Shown: piece after piece, positions 3,894 through 27,359 of the stretch
Numbering within the stretch: position 1 is the stretch's first letter
Layout: every line of letters starts with the position of its first letter
Position numbers and translations under genes: made by a program
Notes under the pieces: model-generated
The model's input: only the letters and a program-made list of their open reading frames with translations
Database searches by the model: none
What the model was told of the DNA's origin: nothing
Source of the DNA: a virus
Taxonomy: Duplodnaviria > Heunggongvirae > Uroviricota > Caudoviricetes
DNA: 34,405 nt
Strand: one strand, 5' to 3'
Virus record (IMG/VR): IMGVR_UViG_2639762844_000002
Coordinates: 1 to 34,405 of that record

Positions 3894-4165
3894 GTATTCG
3901 TATTGAAATTGGCGAACGTTATGTCGTTACCAGTGACAGCTTTCAGTTTATTCTCCACGAGAAAAAGAGAGCGGAAAGCGGTAAAAACGCCGGTCAGGAA
4001 TGGCTGGCGGTGGTTGGTTATTACCCGAAATTAAGCCAGCTCGTTTCCGGCCTGATGCATCACGATATTCTGACCGGAAGCGCAAAGTCTTTTGCTGATT
4101 TAAACGCGCAGGTTGAGCAACTCAGCAAGCGTTGTTCAGAGGCTTTTGGCTCATATGGCCGTTAA
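3890..4165 (+). CDS. Hypothetical early protein (P2 orf83 position)
   Basis: 91 aa; start overlaps the upstream stop. Confidence 0.6.
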   Translation: MSIRIEIGERYVVTSDSFQFILHEKKRAESGKNAGQEWLAVVGYYPKLSQLVSGLMHHDILTGSAKSFADLNAQVEQLSKRCSEAFGSYGR

Positions 4166-6593: not shown

Positions 6594-8432
6594 ATGAGCG
6601 AGTTTGATGTTTTTTCTATTTCAGTTGATGATTTTAAAAAAAGTGAATACGCCAGTATATTATCATCGCCAAGAAGTTATTCTCATTTTGATATGGAGTC
6701 TTATTTTGTTCAGTTGTTGTCATCTTACAAGCTAAAAAACGATGTAAGTTCTTGGCGGCTTTGCTATTTATTACGTGCGTTGTTTAATTTTAAATTTTCT
6801 AGGTCTGGTGATATTATCGGTTTTGAGCCAAAAATCATTCTCTATCCTGAGAGGGGCTATAGGCCTTCAGATTATAAGGAGAGTTTTTCAACAATATTAA
6901 CTTGTATTAAAGAAAACTCCGATAATCCTTATATTATATCTAGGGTGTGTGATGTTTTATGGATAAATAACCGTAAGGATATAGACTCTGCCAATAAAGC
7001 AATAGAGTCATATTCTCTAATGGTTAATGATGCTTGCGATACTTTAATAGAAAAACAAGAGTCAGGTGATATCCATATTTTTGATGTTGTTGACTGCTTG
7101 GATAGAGGTATCGCAATATCGCGCATGCTTATTGGCAGGAAAAAACAACTACAAGGGGGGATAGTTGATTCGACATTAAGGTTATATCATGTATTAATAG
7201 ACTCTGGTATATTCACCGGTGTATTAAGAGTTTCTGAAATTCTTTATAAGAATAATTTATTGTGTCCCTTGCAATTGGCTGAGAATGCAGAAAAGATAGC
7301 TGATGAGCATTGTGGAGCGTCTTATTTTGATGCAGTGAAAAAATTGTTTTATTTTGCGTCTGAATTATATGTTAAAAACGATATGGAAGAGCAAGGAAGA
7401 CGGTGCAGAATTAAAGCGTCAGAAATAACATTGGCTCAATTTGAACAGTCTTCATCTTCAATATTGAAGGCTCATTGGTTAAGAGTTGCTCTTGGCGAAT
7501 TTAGAGCAATTGGTGGAATGAATGAAGAAATTAAAAAGATTAGAGAGGAATTGAATTCTATTCGAGATCAAATCAATGATGAAATGCACTTCTTTGCAAT
7601 ACCAATGGATCTTAGTGATGTTATCGCTCAGAAAGAGCATGTTTATAATCAATTGGATTTCTCAAGGGTAATTAAAACTTTAATTGCTAGATTTAAGATT
7701 GTAAGTGCCAGTGAAATTATGGAAAGAGCTCGTTCCGATGCTAAAAAACATTTTTTTCTTAATATGAGTGAAACGGTTGTTTATGATGATAGAGGGCGCG
7801 TTGTAGCAAGTCGTTCACCTTTGGATCCTGCGGGGGATATAAGTTTAAATGATGCTTGTGCAAATTATTTAAGAACTAGTAACATTGAGCATCAGGTCTA
7901 TGTTTGTGGTGAGTTTGAAGTCGTTAGGCAAAGTGTGTTGGCTAGGTATTCATTAAATGAAAATACATTTGACCCAATCTCACAACAAAGTGCATTTGTT
8001 CCACCTGGGTATGCAGAAATATTTTCTTTGGGGTTTTATAAGCTTTGGCAGGGAGATTATGTGTCTGCCTGTTATTTGTTATTGCCGCAATTGGAGAATT
8101 CAATTAGATGGATTTTAGAATTAAGAAGAAAAGAAACAACGAAAATAGATGTGTCGCTTTTTGAGGAGGCTACTAGCCTATCTCAAATGCTTGCAAATTA
8201 TAGGAGTGAAATGGAAGGTGTTTTTGATAGTGATCATGTATTGACTATGGATTTATTGTTCAATATGAAAGGTGGTGCTGCAATTAGACACACGATGGCT
8301 CATGGCAGGTATACTGTAAATCATTGTTATCAACCAACTTCAGTTTTTGCCTGTGTCTTTATCTTTTATTTAACTTGTTTGCCTTTATTTAGTGTATGGG
8401 AAGATAAAGTTGAACCTTATCTGGCTGATTAA
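6594..8432 (+). CDS. Cargo protein of unknown function (612 aa) at the tin/old hotspot; candidate anti-phage defence protein
   Basis: Long ORF in an AT-rich block between A and cos. RBS aggtgagg. No Walker A (GxxxxGK[ST]) motif, unlike P2 Old. C-terminal hydrophobic stretch SVFACVFIFYLTCLPLFSVW. An R-x4-H motif (AIRHTMAHG) sits near the C-terminus. Confidence 0.8.
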   Translation: MSEFDVFSISVDDFKKSEYASILSSPRSYSHFDMESYFVQLLSSYKLKNDVSSWRLCYLLRALFNFKFSRSGDIIGFEPKIILYPERGYRPSDYKESFSTILTCIKENSDNPYIISRVCDVLWINNRKDIDSANKAIESYSLMVNDACDTLIEKQESGDIHIFDVVDCLDRGIAISRMLIGRKKQLQGGIVDSTLRLYHVLIDSGIFTGVLRVSEILYKNNLLCPLQLAENAEKIADEHCGASYFDAVKKLFYFASELYVKNDMEEQGRRCRIKASEITLAQFEQSSSSILKAHWLRVALGEFRAIGGMNEEIKKIREELNSIRDQINDEMHFFAIPMDLSDVIAQKEHVYNQLDFSRVIKTLIARFKIVSASEIMERARSDAKKHFFLNMSETVVYDDRGRVVASRSPLDPAGDISLNDACANYLRTSNIEHQVYVCGEFEVVRQSVLARYSLNENTFDPISQQSAFVPPGYAEIFSLGFYKLWQGDYVSACYLLLPQLENSIRWILELRRKETTKIDVSLFEEATSLSQMLANYRSEMEGVFDSDHVLTMDLLFNMKGGAAIRHTMAHGRYTVNHCYQPTSVFACVFIFYLTCLPLFSVWEDKVEPYLAD

Positions 8433-8745: not shown

Positions 8746-9015
8746 GTGACTAAATTTGACAAAAAAAAAGCAATTTCTATTTTAACAGAAAAAAAAGCCT
8801 TGCTCCCATGTCATCGGTGTGGAAATTCAAAGTTCATCATTTTGGATGGCATATCATCACTTCCATTAATGGAAAATATGGAAATGATTGGTAGTATTGT
8901 TGTTGGCGGAATGAATGCTCCTGTATTACATGTGGCATGTGAGAATTGTGGTGCAGTTACTTCACATTTGCTTGGGGCACTTGGTTTAATGCCGGAGATT
9001 AAATCAAATGACTAA
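8746..9015 (+). CDS. Small four-Cys zinc-ribbon protein (89 aa), cargo
   Basis: GTG start with GGAG 10 nt upstream. CHRCG ... CENCG is a two-CxxC zinc ribbon. Overlaps the downstream gene by 8 nt. Confidence 0.6.
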   Translation: MTKFDKKKAISILTEKKALLPCHRCGNSKFIILDGISSLPLMENMEMIGSIVVGGMNAPVLHVACENCGAVTSHLLGALGLMPEIKSND

Positions 9016-9478
9016 GGATGTTTTTTTCTCTGATGAAGGTAGTGGTAAAAAAAGTGCTGTCTTGCATGGGGCGCAGGTTACAATAAACCCTGATTCGCAA
9101 TTTACAAAAAAGATAATTAGGCAGACTGAGGTTGATGTTATTGTGATAAGTGATGATAAACTTCATATAATTTTGACGAATTGCTTATCTAAAATTGCAT
9201 CATTAAACCGCTGGTCAACACCTTTGGGTATTTTAATTACCTTGGCGGTAACTATGTTAACCACAAATTTTAAGAATTTTATTCTTCAGGATTCTGTGTG
9301 GGAGGCTGTTTTCTGGATGCTTATTTTTTTTAATATTATCTGGTTGGTGAAAAACATTCCATATAGACACTTATTTTTAACTGTTTGTCATTCTATAGGG
9401 GTTCGTAAAGATAAAAAAAGAATTAGTGATGTATACCACATTATAGATATAATTAAACAAGGTGATACACGCTTTTGA
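9008..9478 (+). CDS. Small membrane protein with two predicted TM helices (156 aa), cargo
   Basis: Hydrophobic segments LGILITLAVTMLTT and VFWMLIFFNIIWLV. Translationally coupled to the zinc-ribbon gene. AT-rich. Confidence 0.65.
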   Translation: MTKDVFFSDEGSGKKSAVLHGAQVTINPDSQFTKKIIRQTEVDVIVISDDKLHIILTNCLSKIASLNRWSTPLGILITLAVTMLTTNFKNFILQDSVWEAVFWMLIFFNIIWLVKNIPYRHLFLTVCHSIGVRKDKKRISDVYHIIDIIKQGDTRF

Positions 9479-18726: not shown

Positions 18727-19478
18727 GATGGGTGTTTGTGGATAAAAAATTTTCCATTTTGAGAAAAAGAGTAAAGCATTCTCAAAAGAAAGTTATGGAT
18801 TGTATTATTGCTGACCATAATGCTGATGTATGTGTGTTATGCGGGAGTTCTGACGATATTACTCGTGAGCACATTATTCCTCAGTGGGCCTTTGAGTCAA
18901 ATGCTGAAAAACTTTTAATTAATAAAAAGAATAATCAGTCAACTCATTACATCAAAGCCACTGTACCAGCATGCAGAGTGTGCAATTCTGATTTGCTGGG
19001 AGCGTTTGAGTATAACCTGAAGAAATTTCTTACGGAAAAGAGGGGCGATGAGTTAACAGATTATGAATATGATTGCATCATATGGTGGTTGCAATACATG
19101 GGCTTTAAGTTGCAATTAATGGATTTACGGACCCGCTTTCTCAGGTATAAAGGGGGGGATTATATCCCTTTCCTTGCAAACTTCCCGGTTGCAATGTTTT
19201 GGGGGAATGTCGATACGACACCGGAGGATGTCTTCAGGATTATAAGAAAATCGCGACGCAATCTGATGTCGAAATGGAAGGATAAAAAACATAATTCTTT
19301 GATGGTTTTTGAAACATCAAACAAGAGTTTTCATTTCTTTCATAAGGTTGATGAATTTATTTTTATTGAAATGCCTCAGGTTAAGAAGGCGTTTTTCTTC
19401 TTTTTTAATAAAGAATTTGACAGCCATGATTTAGCTCATGAGGAGTGTATGAAGATTATAGAGAAGTGCTACAACTAA
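18723..19478 (+). CDS. HNH-motif nuclease-domain protein (251 aa), cargo inserted between S and V
   Basis: CVLCGSSDDITREHIIPQW ... CRVCNSDL fits the HNH signature (CxxC-EHIxP-N-CxxCN). AT-rich. Start overlaps the S stop (ATGA). Confidence 0.8.
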   Translation: MRWVFVDKKFSILRKRVKHSQKKVMDCIIADHNADVCVLCGSSDDITREHIIPQWAFESNAEKLLINKKNNQSTHYIKATVPACRVCNSDLLGAFEYNLKKFLTEKRGDELTDYEYDCIIWWLQYMGFKLQLMDLRTRFLRYKGGDYIPFLANFPVAMFWGNVDTTPEDVFRIIRKSRRNLMSKWKDKKHNSLMVFETSNKSFHFFHKVDEFIFIEMPQVKKAFFFFFNKEFDSHDLAHEECMKIIEKCYN

Positions 19479-21981: not shown

Positions 21982-24111
21982 ATGAGCACAAAATTCAGAA
22001 CCGTTATCACCACTGCCGGTGCAGCAAAGCTGGCAGCGGCAACCGCGCCGGGAGGGCGGAAGGTCAACATTACCACGATGGCCGTCGGGGATGGCGGTGG
22101 TAAATTGCCTGTCCCGGATGCCGGACAGACCGGGCTTATCCATGAAGTCTGGCGACATGCGCTGAACAAAATCAGCCAGGACAAACGAAACAGTAATTAT
22201 ATTATCGCAGAGCTGGTTATTCCGCCGGAGGTGGGCGGTTTCTGGATGCGGGAGCTTGGCCTGTACGATGATGCGGGAACGTTAATTGCCGTGGCGAACA
22301 TGGCCGAAAGCTATAAGCCAGCTCTTGCCGAAGGCTCAGGGCGTTCGCAGACCTGCCGCATGGTCATCATCGTCAGCAGTGTGGCCTCAGTGGAGCTGAC
22401 CATTGACACCACAACGGTGATGGCGACGCAGGATTACGTTGATGACAAAATTGCAGAGCATGAACAGTCACGACGTCACCCGGACGCCTCGCTGACCGCA
22501 AAAGGTTTTACTCAGTTAAGCAATGCGACCAACAGCACGTCTGAAACACTGGCCGCAACGCCAAAAGCAGTAAAGACCGCCTATGACCTGGCTAACGGGA
22601 AATATACTGCACAGGACGCCACCACCGCGCGAAAAGGCCTTGTTCAGCTCAGTAGTGCGACTAACAGCACGTCTGAAACGCTCGCCGCAACGCCAAAAGC
22701 AGTAAAGACCGCCTATGACCTTGCTAACGGGAAATACACTGCACAGGACGCCACCACAGCGCGAAAAGGGCTTGCTCAGCTCAGTAGCGCCACCAACAGC
22801 GATTCTGAAACGCTTGCGGCAACGCCAAAGGCGGTAAAGGCAGCATATGACCTCGCTAACGGGAAATATACCGCACAGGATGCCACCACTGCGCGAAAAG
22901 GTCTTGTCCAGCTCAGTAGCGCCACAAACAGCGATTCTGAAACGCTTGCGGCAACGCCAAAGGCGGTAAAGGTCGCGTATGACCTTGCTAACGGGAAATA
23001 CACTGCACAGGATGCCACCACAGCGCGAAAAGGGCTTGTTCAGCTCAGTAGCGCCACCAACAGTGATTCGGAAACGCTGGCCGCAACACCAAAAGCGGTG
23101 AAGTCTGCCTATGACAATGCTGAAAAACGTCTTCAGAAAGATCAAAATGGCGCGGATATTCCTGATAAAAGATTATTCCTGCGCAATATTGGAGCAACAA
23201 ATTCAACAACCATGTCTTTTAGTGGTGGTACAGGATGGTTCAGGCTGGCAACTGTAACCATGCCACAGGCCAGTTCCGTGGTTTACATAAGTCTGATTGG
23301 TGGTGCTGGATATAATGTTAACTCCCCTATGCAGGCTGGTATATCTGAACTTGTTCTTCGTGCGGGAAATGGAAATCCAAAAGGTCTTACTGGTGCGTTA
23401 TGGCGACGGACATCGGTTGGATTTACTAATTTTGCATGGGTGAATACATCCGGTGATACCTATGATGTTTATGTTGAAATAGGTAATTACGCCACAGGTG
23501 TTAATATTCAGTGGGATTATACCAGTAACGCCAGCGTAACGATTCATACATCACCATCTTATACAGCGAATAAACCAACAGGCCTGACAGATGGAACTGT
23601 ATATGTAATTTACAGTTCGCACATTAAACCGACTGCTGCTGATGTTGGGGCGTTGTCATTATCTGGAGGTCAATTGAATGGTGCACTGGGCATCGGAACA
23701 TCCAGTGCTCTTGGCGGTAACTCGATTGTTTTGGGTGATAATGACACGGGCTTTAAACAAAATGGCGACGGTAATCTGGATGTTTATGCTAATAACGTCC
23801 ATGTTATGCGCTTTGTCTCCGGTAGCATTCAAAGTAATAAAACCATAAATATTACGGGGCGTGTTAATCCCACAGATTACGGTAACTTTGATTCCCGCTA
23901 TGTCCGGGATATCCGGCTTGGTGGTGCTGCCACATACAAACCTGCGAACAATGGCATGACATGGACACATCAGGCACCGTCCGGGTGTATATATTCCGGC
24001 ATTATTGTTCAGGATACCGGCTCAAACTCTGCCGATAACATTGGTGGCGTATATTACAGACCGGTTCAGAAATACATTAACGGGACATGGTATAACGTGG
24101 CACAGGTATAA
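21982..24111 (+). CDS. H: Tail fibre protein H (mosaic, with internal tandem repeats)
   Basis: 709 aa. Conserved N-terminus, a central repeat array, and an AT-richer Gly/Tyr/Thr-rich C-terminal domain. Confidence 0.9.
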   Translation: MSTKFRTVITTAGAAKLAAATAPGGRKVNITTMAVGDGGGKLPVPDAGQTGLIHEVWRHALNKISQDKRNSNYIIAELVIPPEVGGFWMRELGLYDDAGTLIAVANMAESYKPALAEGSGRSQTCRMVIIVSSVASVELTIDTTTVMATQDYVDDKIAEHEQSRRHPDASLTAKGFTQLSNATNSTSETLAATPKAVKTAYDLANGKYTAQDATTARKGLVQLSSATNSTSETLAATPKAVKTAYDLANGKYTAQDATTARKGLAQLSSATNSDSETLAATPKAVKAAYDLANGKYTAQDATTARKGLVQLSSATNSDSETLAATPKAVKVAYDLANGKYTAQDATTARKGLVQLSSATNSDSETLAATPKAVKSAYDNAEKRLQKDQNGADIPDKRLFLRNIGATNSTTMSFSGGTGWFRLATVTMPQASSVVYISLIGGAGYNVNSPMQAGISELVLRAGNGNPKGLTGALWRRTSVGFTNFAWVNTSGDTYDVYVEIGNYATGVNIQWDYTSNASVTIHTSPSYTANKPTGLTDGTVYVIYSSHIKPTAADVGALSLSGGQLNGALGIGTSSALGGNSIVLGDNDTGFKQNGDGNLDVYANNVHVMRFVSGSIQSNKTINITGRVNPTDYGNFDSRYVRDIRLGGAATYKPANNGMTWTHQAPSGCIYSGIIVQDTGSNSADNIGGVYYRPVQKYINGTWYNVAQV
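22501..23110 (+). repeat. About 4.6 tandem copies of a 132-bp (44-aa) in-frame repeat within H
   Basis: Copies begin at 22501, 22633, 22765, 22897 and 23029. Each encodes KGLVQLSSATNSxSETLAATPKAVKxAYDLANGKYTAQDATTAR. Confidence 0.9.
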
Positions 24112-24114
24112 TTT

Positions 24115-24642
24115 ATGCAGCATTTGATAAATATAACAGCGGGGAATCCAAAAACGGTTGAACAATATCAATTGACAAAGGGTTTTGATGTTGTCTGGTT
24201 TTTTTCAGAAGATGGTAAGAACTGGTACGAAGAACAAAAGTATTTTGCTGATGACACGATAAAAATAGCGTACGACAAAGATAATATTATCCGCTATGTG
24301 GAAAAGGATGTGACAGCTATCAGACCAGATGGATTAAGTGTTGTTGAAGTGCCAGATATTACTGCTAACCGACGGGCGGACATTTCAGGGAACTGGATGT
24401 TTAAGGACGGCACAGTGATTAAACGAATTTATACGGCGGAGGAATTGCAGCAGCAGGCAGAAAATCGGAAAGCCAGACTTCTAGCAGATGCTGAATCCGT
24501 GATTTTGCCGCTGGAGCGCTCTGTCAGGCTGAACATGGCAACAGAGGAGGAGCGCACACGGCTGGAGGCTTGGGAACGCTATAGCGTTCTGGTCAGTCGT
24601 GTGGATCCTGCAAATCCTGAATGGCCGGAAATGCCGCAATAA
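24115..24642 (+). CDS. G: Tail fibre assembly chaperone
   Basis: 175 aa, immediately downstream of H. Confidence 0.88.
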
Positions 24643-24694
24643 GTTGTATGAGCTCTGGTGGGAGCCTACATATCTATGGCACAGAGTAAAGCCT

Positions 24695-24730
24695 AATCTG
24701 ACAGTCCGCTCTGTGCCAAAAGCGGACGTT
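24695..24730. repeat. Left copy of a 36-nt imperfect inverted repeat flanking the Z/fun-locus cargo gene
   Basis: aatctgacagtccgctctgtgccaaaagcggacgtt; its reverse complement matches 25951..25986 at 32 of 36 positions. Overlapping hairpins ggcacagag/ctctgtgcc and gtccgct/agcggac are present. Confidence 0.6.
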
Positions 24731-24805
24731 ATAAATTTCTTTTAGGGCAACCGAAAAAAGAGGGGTACGACCTATACTTGATTTGTATTTTAGATCACGC
24801 TTGCA

Positions 24806-25846
24806 TCAGTATAAATTTAACCCAAGCTTACTAATTTCTTTTCTACGCATTCCAAAAATAACATCACCACTTCTAGAAATGAATGAAGCAATGCGTCGGT
24901 CATTGTCATCTACACCTTCCCAGAAGAAAGGGACATTATTGTTCATCAGACTTTCTGCAAAGGTTAAATGTGTTAACGCCAAGAAAATTCTAACAAAATT
25001 AGATGGCTCATTGAAATCCTGATTCAGCAAATGTAGTGTCAAATGTCTATTGAAGCTACCTTCATTAACACCTCCAGTTGGTTTATATATGACATTTTTA
25101 AAAAAAGATCTGGTTGAATTCATCACATCACACTGGGGGTTTAAATGTGTGAAAAAATCCACCTCAGTTTCAATGTCATAACCTTTGCCGGGATGCCAGT
25201 CAAAATTTGGGAGCTGCCGTCTTCCCCATGTAATAATGAGTTTTCTAATTTCCTTTTCAAATCTGTCTGCACTTGTATTTGTGTTGTCACCATCACAAAA
25301 TTTTACAAGTAAGTTCCTCAATCCACCTTCAAAGACAGGGAAGAGCGACATTATAGATATATGATCATACCCCAAATAAAAAGCTTCTATAGCTTCAAAA
25401 ATAATTGTCTTGTAGTTTTTTAGTGATTCGCTCTTTATAAAGTATTTGTTGAAGTAAGCAATTGCAATTTCTAATGAGAAATTTTCGAATAACCATTTAT
25501 TTGAATTATTAAGCGGATTTTCACTTCTTTTAATTTCATGGATTGCAGAAGAAAGAGTGCCTTCTCCAATATATAGGGGTAATGCTATACCAAGTGAATT
25601 TGCATGCGACTGAATATTCGAACATCGTCCCCAATGTCTATTTAAGTACGATATTGGCCTTTCGGTAAGCAAGAAGTTTAAATCATCAATTTTAACTGTG
25701 AAAGAAGCATAACAAAGTTCACTTTTTGAGATTACTGGTTCTACGCTATGATTTCTCCTGAATTGATTTAGAATTTCATTCTCAGAGAGTTTGTCTAATT
25801 TTGATAAGCGTTTCAAAGTTGGCAGGAATTTTTCTAAATCTGACAT
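24806..25846 (-). CDS. Cargo protein of unknown function (346 aa) at the Z/fun locus; candidate anti-phage or exclusion protein
   Basis: AT-rich ORF on the strand opposite the late genes, between G and FI where P2 carries Z/fun. Own AT-rich upstream region. No recognisable motif. Confidence 0.8.
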   Translation of the reverse strand: MSDLEKFLPTLKRLSKLDKLSENEILNQFRRNHSVEPVISKSELCYASFTVKIDDLNFLLTERPISYLNRHWGRCSNIQSHANSLGIALPLYIGEGTLSSAIHEIKRSENPLNNSNKWLFENFSLEIAIAYFNKYFIKSESLKNYKTIIFEAIEAFYLGYDHISIMSLFPVFEGGLRNLLVKFCDGDNTNTSADRFEKEIRKLIITWGRRQLPNFDWHPGKGYDIETEVDFFTHLNPQCDVMNSTRSFFKNVIYKPTGGVNEGSFNRHLTLHLLNQDFNEPSNFVRIFLALTHLTFAESLMNNNVPFFWEGVDDNDRRIASFISRSGDVIFGMRRKEISKLGLNLY

Positions 25847-25950
25847 AATAATCCTAAAAGTTAAGAATTAATCTTTACGAAAGATATCATATGATACTTT
25901 GATTAATTATACTATTTAATGGTGTTTTTATCAGCACAGAACTAAGCGTA

Positions 25951-25986
25951 AACGTCCGCTTTTCGCTCAAAGCAGACTGTCAGATT
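25951..25986. repeat. Right copy of the 36-nt imperfect inverted repeat flanking the Z/fun-locus cargo gene
   Basis: aacgtccgcttttcgctcaaagcagactgtcagatt; partner of 24695..24730. Confidence 0.6.
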
Positions 25987-26043
25987 TGATAGCGTTTGGG
26001 CTATGTAATAGTCAGTTGGAAAATGAGTGAGTACAAATCAGGA

Positions 26044-26072
26044 CAGGCGGGCTGATTGCCCGCCTTTTCTTT
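26044..26072 (+). terminator. Rho-independent terminator (aggcgggc-tgatt-gcccgcct + ttttcttt)
   Basis: Perfect GC stem followed by a T-run on the plus strand, upstream of FI. Probably the original V-G operon terminator, displaced by the cargo insertion. Confidence 0.6.
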
Positions 26073-26168
26073 ATCTGTTGTTTCATCCACTGACCAGCCA
26101 GGTCAAATAGCGTCTCATGTACTACCCAACGGAAAATAGTTGCACCCATTAACCACGGAGTTAAACGG

Positions 26169-27359
26169 ATGAGTGACTATCATCACGGCGTGCAGGTGCT
26201 GGAGATTAACGACGGCACCCGCGTCATTTCCACTGTATCCACGGCCATTGTCGGCATGGTCTGCACGGCCAGCGATGCGGATGCGGAAACCTTCCCCCTC
26301 AATAAACCGGTGCTGATTACCAATGTGCAAAGCGCAATTGCAAAGGCCGGTAAAAAAGGCACGCTGGCGGCTGCGTTGCAGGCCATCGCCGACCAGTCAA
26401 AACCGGTCACCGTTGTTGTGCGTGTGGAAGACGGCACCGGCGACGACGAGGAAACGAAGCTCGCGCAGACCGTTTCCAATATCATCGGCACCACCGACGA
26501 AAACGGTCAGTACACCGGACTGAAAGCCCTGCTGGCGGCGGAGTCGGTAACCGGTGTTAAACCGCGCATTCTCGGTGTGCCGGGACTGGACACCAAAGAG
26601 GTGGCTGTTGCACTGGCATCAGTCTGTCAGAAGCTGCGCGCTTTCGGGTATATCAGCGCATGGGGCTGTAAAACCATTTCTGAGGTGAAAGCCTACCGCC
26701 AGAATTTCAGCCAGCGTGAGCTGATGGTCATCTGGCCGGATTTCCTCGCATGGGATACGGTCACCAGTACCACCGCCACCGCGTATGCCACTGCCCGTGC
26801 GCTGGGTCTGCGCGCTAAAATCGACCAGGAGCAGGGCTGGCATAAAACGCTGTCCAACGTTGGGGTGAACGGTGTTACCGGCATCAGTGCATCTGTATTC
26901 TGGGATTTGCAGGAGTCCGGCACCGATGCTGACCTGTTGAACGAGTCAGGTGTCACAACGCTGATTCGCCGTGACGGTTTCCGCTTCTGGGGTAACCGTA
27001 CCTGCTCTGATGACCCGCTGTTCCTCTTTGAAAACTACACCCGCACCGCGCAGGTGCTGGCCGACACGATGGCTGAGGCGCACATGTGGGCGGTGGACAA
27101 GCCCATCACTGCAACGCTGATTCGCGACATCGTTGACGGCATCAATGCCAAATTCCGTGAGCTGAAAACAAACGGCTATATCGTGGATGCGACCTGCTGG
27201 TTCAGCGAAGAATCCAACGATGCGGAAACCCTCAAGGCCGGAAAACTGTATATCGACTACGACTATACACCGGTGCCTCCTCTCGAAAACCTGACCCTGC
27301 GCCAGCGTATTACCGATAAATACCTGGCAAATCTGGTCACCTCGGTTAACAGCAATTAA
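26169..27359 (+). CDS. FI: Tail sheath protein
   Basis: 396 aa; length as P2 FI. Confidence 0.92.
   Translation: MSDYHHGVQVLEINDGTRVISTVSTAIVGMVCTASDADAETFPLNKPVLITNVQSAIAKAGKKGTLAAALQAIADQSKPVTVVVRVEDGTGDDEETKLAQTVSNIIGTTDENGQYTGLKALLAAESVTGVKPRILGVPGLDTKEVAVALASVCQKLRAFGYISAWGCKTISEVKAYRQNFSQRELMVIWPDFLAWDTVTSTTATAYATARALGLRAKIDQEQGWHKTLSNVGVNGVTGISASVFWDLQESGTDADLLNESGVTTLIRRDGFRFWGNRTCSDDPLFLFENYTRTAQVLADTMAEAHMWAVDKPITATLIRDIVDGINAKFRELKTNGYIVDATCWFSEESNDAETLKAGKLYIDYDYTPVPPLENLTLRQRITDKYLANLVTSVNSN

Follow-up and report, generated by a model that had tools for sequence, protein, structure and literature searches.

The 346-aa protein encoded between the tail genes G and FI of a P2-like Escherichia coli prophage belongs to an undescribed family that has the conserved catalytic residues and, by prediction, the fold of HEPN ribonucleases, and its gene is therefore a credible candidate for a single-gene anti-phage system. 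The prophage takes up the whole stretch of DNA that was analysed (the window, 34,405 nt). We give an even chance to the interpretation that the protein is a self-contained HEPN-type ribonuclease, carried by the prophage as accessory cargo which excludes other phages.

The coding sequence lies at 24806–25846 on the minus strand and was defined by the list of open reading frames, the RefSeq annotation, homologues and dN/dS. It starts with ATG, and its product (40.2 kDa, pI 6.8) is soluble and without a transmembrane segment according to hydropathy (maximum 1.29). In the identical prophage of Escherichia coli ECC-1470, RefSeq lists the product as WP_023156269, ‘hypothetical protein’. The gene is flanked by the tail fibre assembly gene G (24115–24642, plus strand) and the tail sheath gene FI (26169–27359, plus strand). 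Its GC content is 33.9% (GC3 29%), and 500-nt windows across it have GC fractions of 0.33–0.34 compared with about 0.54–0.58 in the flanking late genes. The initial annotation, which described an AT-rich open reading frame of 346 codons on the opposite strand in the G–FI interval, was correct in each of these respects. A protein search found 84 homologues, nearly all of full length (about 341–367 aa) and all annotated as hypothetical, in Enterobacterales, Aeromonas, Vibrio, Photobacterium, Shewanella, Halomonas, Pseudomonas and one betaproteobacterium. The dN/dS ratios of 0.07–0.15 obtained against five homologues from other contexts indicate that the gene is under purifying selection. Since these ratios come together with so many nearly full-length homologues, a spurious open reading frame is excluded.

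The G–FI interval is one of the two classical defence hotspots of P2 and has yielded three experimentally validated PD defence systems (PMC9519451; bioRxiv 10.1101/2024.10.15.618418). In P2 itself (NC_001895), the same interval is filled by fun(Z) on the strand opposite to the late operons, and a note in the record states that the cloned gene blocks T5 growth. At this site, further P2-like prophages of E. coli have DUF4145 genes, DUF6615 genes, genes for restriction endonucleases, or others annotated as hypothetical. The assignment of the locus to the Z/fun hotspot, which had been made from the sequence alone, was thus upheld by the interval and orientation of fun(Z) and by the alternative alleles. 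P2 fun(Z) resembles the gene studied here in its identical position and orientation, in having its own promoter and in being nonessential lysogenic-conversion cargo, but its 528-aa product is unrelated. That the 346-aa protein might be a diverged Fun(Z) (NP_046777) was rejected at an hhalign probability of 0.2%. A relationship to the DUF4145 and DUF6615 alleles of the hotspot was rejected as well, and hhalign comparison of the superfamily profile described below (A2) with a DUF4145 profile (A5) gave a probability of 0.15%. The DUF4145 (PF13643) allele occupies the same hotspot and is of similar size (292 aa), and DUF4145 has been classed within the HEPN superfamily (PMC3710099). It differs from the 346-aa protein, however, in its motif (R-x7-H with G-N), and this allele is transcribed in the opposite orientation.

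Searches of Pfam, PADLOC 2.0.0, PHROGs, NCBIfam 20 and PDB sequences with the 346-aa protein produced nothing above noise, and none of the 5027 models of PADLOC-DB 2.0.0 matched it. Weak matches to DUF6709, Peptidase_C9, YjjI and Faf1 were dismissed as chance. Foldseek found no match at E ≤ 0.001 between the full-length model and the PDB; the pore-forming toxins and transporters that it returned had E values of about 0.5 and were rejected. We found no paper mentioning WP_023156269 and no prior description of this protein or of a similar system at the hotspot, and the P4-hotspot systems to which a 2026 preprint gave new names include none that resembles it. The description of the protein as uncharacterised therefore stands.

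When 1.84 billion cluster representatives were searched exhaustively by profile (cut-off E ≤ 0.001), the family grew into a superfamily of 190 representatives, which includes versions of about 190–250 aa and of about 460–495 aa; 105 of the 190 were taken into the scans and the alignment. Nothing real was found for these 105 members in Pfam, PADLOC, NCBIfam or a PDB profile search. No curated HEPN profile was matched significantly, only two of the 105 relatives giving a weak match to HEPN_RiboL-PSP (E = 0.003), and the PADLOC scan yielded only weak single-member matches (E ≥ 0.003) that were treated as noise. Only noise came from PDB profile searches based on the alignments of the family (A1) and the superfamily (A2), and a zinc-finger match to ‘LNRHxxxH’ was discarded as chance. 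One distant relative, of 483 aa, is encoded by the Yersinia phage vB_YenM_56.17 (Peduoviridae), where its gene immediately follows those of the repressor and the integrase; lysogenic-conversion genes typically occupy this position.

HEPN domains are defined by an Rx4–6H motif, with N, D or H in most cases directly following the R, and by a second conserved acidic residue upstream, typically within an Ex3[KR] motif; together these build the metal-independent RNase site (PMC3710099). The 346-aa protein has R267-x4-H272 within N266-R267-H268-L-T-L-H272 (25031–25051, minus strand), with the polar H268 directly after R. Upstream, E173-G-G-L-R177 (25316–25330, minus strand) provides an Ex3[KR] motif with the acidic residue expected of a HEPN active site. 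The blocks N266-R267-H268-x3-H272 and E173-G-G-L-R177 are invariant in an alignment of 35 family sequences, so the initial statement that the protein has no recognisable motif does not hold. In the superfamily alignment (105 sequences, mean identity 15%), R267 and H272 form the only invariant columns. E173 and N266 are each kept in 104 of the 105 members, H268 is present in 95 and replaced by N in nine others, and position 177 is R in 80 and K in three more. The possibility of a metal-binding site (HxxxH plus acidic residues) was dismissed: E151, E154, D240 and E298 lack conservation within the superfamily, and too few metal ligands are therefore left.

These hallmarks fall in the C-terminal two thirds of the protein (aa 135–346; 24809–25444, minus strand), for which an all-helical, HEPN-like fold is predicted. 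The model contains a four-helix up-down bundle like that of solved HEPN domains. From the distance of about 94 residues between E173 and R267, it follows that the core carries inserts. The N-terminal region (aa 1–134; 25445–25846, minus strand) is predicted by the AlphaFold2 model (pLDDT 86.8) to consist of two helices, a three-stranded sheet (aa 38–61) and a helical linker. No relatives of this region were found by structure or sequence match, and the superfamily members of about 190–250 aa are devoid of it. The region may be a sensor or autoinhibitory module.

The upstream DNA contains signals from which the gene could be expressed independently of the late operons. An AGGA ribosome-binding site, read from the sequence, is located 5 nt before the ATG (25852–25855, minus strand), and about 60 nt upstream of the gene is a promoter-like site of the sigma-70 type (CTGATA-17 nt-TATAAT; 25906–25934, minus strand). 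The latter matches at 10 of 12 positions, is the best such site in the region, belongs to the swapped cargo DNA and is unchanged in the cassette copies from Brenneria and Enterobacter. A perfect 12-bp palindrome, TATCATATGATA (25885–25896, minus strand), is situated between the predicted −10 element and the ribosome-binding site. Its central ATGATA half is the same in all three near-identical cassettes, and one outer position is changed in the Brenneria copy (TATCATGTGATA). The palindrome is a possible operator, or it could be a chance product of AT-rich DNA. AT-rich cargo is frequently silenced in E. coli, which counts against the expression in the lysogen that we propose.

Alignments of four alleles (the 346-aa gene, P2 fun(Z), DUF4145 and DUF6615) across both junctions delimited a swapped cargo cassette of about 1.22 kb (24728–25950, minus strand), which comprises the promoter, the gene and its 3′ untranslated region. 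The shared backbone ends at about 24727 and resumes at about 25951. Both breakpoints are marked by the arms of a 36-nt inverted repeat, the left at 24695–24730 and the right at 25951–25986, which are 89% complementary. Each arm holds a GTCCGCT-loop-AGCGGAC hairpin, located on the left at 24704–24727 (GTCCGCT-N10-AGCGGAC) and on the right at 25954–25977. The cassette shows about 97% DNA identity, from hairpin to hairpin, with a Brenneria satellite and an Enterobacter island, and no similarity beyond. The hairpin is present at the ends of the Enterobacter cassette, and the Brenneria copy retains the junction motif at both ends. In E. coli, the homology of the neighbouring McrBC module itself ends about 120 bp before the hairpin.

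A conserved non-coding element of about 85–90 nt begins with the right arm; this element also occurs, unannotated, on 66 Enterobacterales plasmids. On plasmid pYR7 of Yersinia ruckeri, two inverted copies of the element bracket a cargo gene for a 314-aa protein; a relationship of this protein to the 346-aa protein was rejected. Within the P2 backbone, a strong intrinsic terminator on the plus strand (26045–26065) comes after the element, and the 126-nt stretch of element and terminator folds unusually well (z = −3.6). Rfam gave only sub-threshold matches to this structured region, to STnc150 (18.7 bits, cut-off 60) and to PrrB/RsmZ. Integron attC-type core sites (GTTRRRY / RYYYAAC) were rejected as well, the junction sequences GTTTACG and TTATAAC being unlike the consensus. 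The boundary elements may be recombination sites, transcriptional insulators or something else.

A 1.6-kb query covering the cassette and its junctions (24600–26200) was 100% identical to the prophages of E. coli ECC-1470, Ec40743 and PM22, all of which adjoin yegQ. Among 5426 complete E. coli genomes, 1686 matched the query, almost all through the conserved flanks, and only five contained the cassette. It was present in 12 of 100,044 species-representative genomes. Outside the Z/fun hotspot, the family occurs in various surroundings. In the Enterobacter cloacae complex and on three metagenomic contigs, a 97% identical protein is encoded between McrBC and an SMEK_N protein with a GIY-YIG nuclease. 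In Brenneria, and similarly in Acerihabitans, a 98% copy is part of a P4-like satellite with integrase, AlpA, Ash and primase genes, where it adjoins a RelE/MqsA-like pair. An 82% copy in Pantoea vagans lies in a lambdoid prophage between replication genes and KilA-N/Q. Family members were also found at the end of an HP1/P2-like tail module in two Pseudomonas genomes, at the cargo end of an AlpA/Toprim/DUF927 satellite in Halomonas, beside a prophage in Vibrio tubiashii (right after genes for a TIR/SEFIR protein and a protein kinase), adjoining transposases in Shewanella, and as a lone insertion after recBCD in Aeromonas. Phage genes (lambdoid and HP1), integrases and an Mrr-type endonuclease were among the neighbours at twelve further loci, as were Tn7-like TnsB and TniQ, double-GTPase proteins, a TIR effector, ATPases of SMC/AriA/PtuA-like type and three PADLOC candidates (PDC-S31, mad3 and mad8). 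This rare and patchy distribution in hotspots, islands and mobile elements is that expected of accessory defence cargo. The finding of the gene on only six IMG/VR viral contigs was counted against the defence reading.

No partner gene is conserved across about 20 contexts, which agrees with the initial suggestion that the function resides in a single gene. A toxin–antitoxin pair of the HEPN-MNT or RnlAB type was rejected, there being no conserved adjacent antitoxin gene in any context. The cassette itself contains no other open reading frame of at least 60 aa outside the gene, those of its untranslated parts being 20–50 aa long. HEPN toxins usually require an antitoxin or an activating ligand; neither was evident for the 346-aa protein.

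For the expression, dimerisation, RNase activity, autoinhibition, trigger and phenotype of the protein, we infer the following course of events. The protein would be made in the lysogen from its own promoter. Two Rx4H motifs, paired across a dimer, would form a metal-independent RNase site as in other HEPN enzymes, built from E173/R177 and N266-R267-H268…H272. The 134 N-terminal residues would hold this site inactive until a component or a consequence of infection by a heterologous phage is sensed. The activated enzyme would then cut RNA (tRNA, mRNA or rRNA) and stop translation, which would either block the invader directly or abort the infected cell, and the lysogenic population and its prophage would be protected.

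Other explanations of the same data were weighed against this one. It is distinctly unlikely, in our estimate, that the conserved E, R and H serve a role other than RNase catalysis, such as nucleotide or nucleic-acid binding or another chemistry, in a helical fold that merely resembles HEPN; the protein would then act in phage exclusion, or in something else, by a non-RNase mechanism. We regard it as quite improbable that the protein is a HEPN-fold toxin with a mainly selfish role, in which it would stabilise its own element or act against rival ones (addiction or exclusion); any antitoxin function would then reside in the N-terminal region of the protein or be supplied by an unrecognised RNA. 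HEPN domains are common as toxins of toxin–antitoxin systems (PMC3710099), some loci have RelE/MqsA-like or ParE modules beside the family gene, and the tight unit of promoter and gene travels among mobile elements, but no cognate antitoxin gene is conserved in any context. The structured plus-strand RNA with its strong terminator just upstream of the gene might be taken for the missing control. This RNA, however, accompanies all alleles as part of the P2 backbone and is therefore outside the cassette. Moreover, the lone chromosomal copy next to recBCD in Aeromonas has no element to stabilise.

A counter-defence or host-takeover factor that helps the phage instead of defending the lysogen, for example an RNase destroying host or satellite transcripts or immune signals, seems very improbable to us. 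The cargo of phage hotspots is mixed and includes anti-defence genes (bioRxiv 10.1101/2024.10.15.618418), and the family is found in several prophage types. The near-identical copies in the chromosomal McrBC island and the solo chromosomal gene, however, have no phage to benefit. The orientation antisense to the late operons with a separate promoter-like site fits expression in the lysogen, and in P2 this site is occupied by an exclusion gene. The probability that the gene encodes a tail or morphogenesis accessory protein, or is a spurious open reading frame, is practically negligible. This idea could draw on the position between tail genes and on the RefSeq label, but it is contradicted by the opposite strand, the foreign base composition, the replacement by unrelated genes in other P2-like phages, the non-phage contexts, and the dN/dS ratios and full-length homologues described above. 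Homology to a morphogenesis protein, named in the initial annotation as an observation that would speak against a defence role, was searched for and none was found, with no match in PHROGs. Reading the gene as a candidate for defence or exclusion, as it was initially proposed, is thus supported, as a candidate only.

As a candidate HEPN-type exclusion protein, the 346-aa protein can be compared with several groups of known systems. The abortive infection proteins AbiD/AbiF (‘Abi2’), AbiJ, AbiU2 and AbiV and the anticodon nucleases PrrC and RloC have been catalogued as HEPN (PMC3710099). They share with it the combination of a variable N-terminal region and a HEPN core (Rx4–6H, Ex3[KR]) and the patchy occurrence on mobile elements, and solo action is proposed for the 346-aa protein. 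It differs from them in having no Pfam or PADLOC sequence or profile match, in its unique N-terminal region and in the inserts within its core. Unlike the Csm6/Csx1 HEPN RNases (PDB 8jbc, 6tug, 8y7f), to which its sequence identity is 4–12%, it is without a CARF domain or any other domain recognisable as ligand-sensing, and its gene is not associated with CRISPR. RnlA is controlled by an antitoxin from the adjacent gene rnlB; in contrast to the anti-T4 HEPN toxins RnlA/LsoA (RNase LS; PDB 6y2r, 7aex), with which it has no sequence match, the 346-aa protein has no conserved neighbour.

The PD-T4, PD-lambda and PD-T7 systems, like the gene studied here, were formerly unannotated genes in P2 hotspots. 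The 5027 models of PADLOC 2.0.0 presumably include them, and the 346-aa protein differs from the PD systems and the PADLOC candidates in that no PADLOC 2.0.0 model matches it. Remote HEPN-like motifs were noted in six of the 21 PD discoveries from P2 hotspots (Vassallo et al. 2022, PMC9519451).

In a broader proposal, the protein would found a new family of HEPN defence proteins whose N-terminal sensor is novel, and its gene would be the cargo of an undescribed kind of mobile cassette bounded by dedicated recombination sites. We consider this proposal unlikely, though not markedly so. The unit of hairpin, promoter, gene and hairpin would be moved by its boundary sites between P2 hotspots, P4-like satellites, plasmids and defence islands on the chromosome. 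According to a recent survey, P2 and P4 almost never swap defence genes, and the recombination process behind hotspot swapping was called unresolved (bioRxiv 10.64898/2026.02.27.708500). The cassette with its defined ends is a counter-example to the rule that P2 and P4 almost never exchange such genes.

The presence of the same 1.2-kb cassette in a P2 prophage, a P4-like satellite and an McrBC island amounts to a natural experiment on the movement of defence cargo, and the boundary elements make the mechanism of swapping directly testable. The breakpoints coincide exactly with the hairpins in independent contexts, which makes the function of the elements worth asking about. If the cloned gene protects, it would establish a new HEPN family among the single-gene defence systems, with its own sensor region and without an existing database model. 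If protection is shown, annotation pipelines would also gain a model that covers about 190 protein clusters now called ‘hypothetical’.

The swapped cassette is bounded on both sides by 36-nt inverted repeats (24695-24730 and 25951-25986 of the window), each of which contains a GTCCGCT-loop-AGCGGAC hairpin. Copies of the cassette that are ~97% identical were found in a P4-like satellite (L028, Brenneria, CP135917) and in an McrBC island (L024, Enterobacter), where the boundary motifs lie at 6886-6896 and 8115-8125 and at 6871-6894 and 8117-8140, respectively. The DNA common to the window, the satellite and the island extends exactly from hairpin to hairpin, with no similarity outside.

The right boundary arm is a piece of an unannotated conserved non-coding element of ~85-90 nt with the pattern …CGCTCAAAGCAGACTGTCAGATTTGAT…GTCAG…TGAG. 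The element, located at 25951-26040 of the window, was also detected in three other loci, L029 (4003-4092), L030 (2818-2880 and 4011-4081) and L031 (about 4001-4085), and it is carried by 66 Enterobacterales plasmids. In the Yersinia ruckeri plasmid pYR7, a different cargo gene, encoding a 314-aa protein, lies between two inverted copies of the element. In the window, a stable plus-strand fold (25945-26070, z = -3.6) ends in a strong intrinsic terminator (26045-26065, plus strand), which is absent from the plasmid copies of the element. This layout is typical of small RNAs. The Rfam search of the structured region gave only sub-threshold matches, e.g. STnc150 (18.7 bits; cut-off, 60). It belongs to the conserved backbone and immediately precedes the FI late promoter region.

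Within the cassette, a perfect 12-bp palindrome, TATCATATGATA, is located at 25885-25896, downstream of the predicted −10 element and ahead of the gene's ribosome-binding site. The palindrome is exact in the Enterobacter copy and changed at one position in the Brenneria copy. It could serve as an operator, or it could have arisen by chance, the DNA being AT-rich.

Two other homologues of the gene differ in orientation or position. An 84%-identical homologue in an IMG/VR contig (L019, 2288-4813) is located right after the tail-fibre genes H and G and on the same strand, i.e. in the reverse of the window orientation; no exact match to the hairpin motifs was found at this locus. The gp01 of the Yersinia phage vB_YenM_56.17 (Peduoviridae; L017, 3515-4966) is a distant 483-aa member of the superfamily, 27% identical in the core. 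Its gene directly follows those of the repressor and the integrase, a cargo position different from that in the window.

The other classical P2 hotspot of the window (31-36% GC), which separates the replication endonuclease gene from the portal gene, encodes a 612-aa DUF7380 protein (6594-8432, plus strand) matching the PADLOC candidate PDC-S39 (E = 2e-68) and contains two small hypothetical ORFs (8746-9015 and 9008-9478) with no PADLOC match. A third AT-rich insertion (36-39% GC), flanked by a virion-morphogenesis gene and the baseplate gene V, encodes a 246-aa hypothetical protein (18738-19478, plus strand), also with no PADLOC match, which may be additional cargo. The tail-fibre gene H contains a 132-bp (44-aa) tandem repeat (22528-23115, plus strand; 4.5 copies, 88% matches).

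According to a 2026 preprint (10.64898/2026.02.27.708500), defence genes almost never pass between P2 phages and P4 satellites. Since the P4-like satellites of Brenneria and Acerihabitans (L032) encode a protein 98% identical to that of the window, the cassette appears to be an exception to this rarity of P2/P4 defence-gene exchange.
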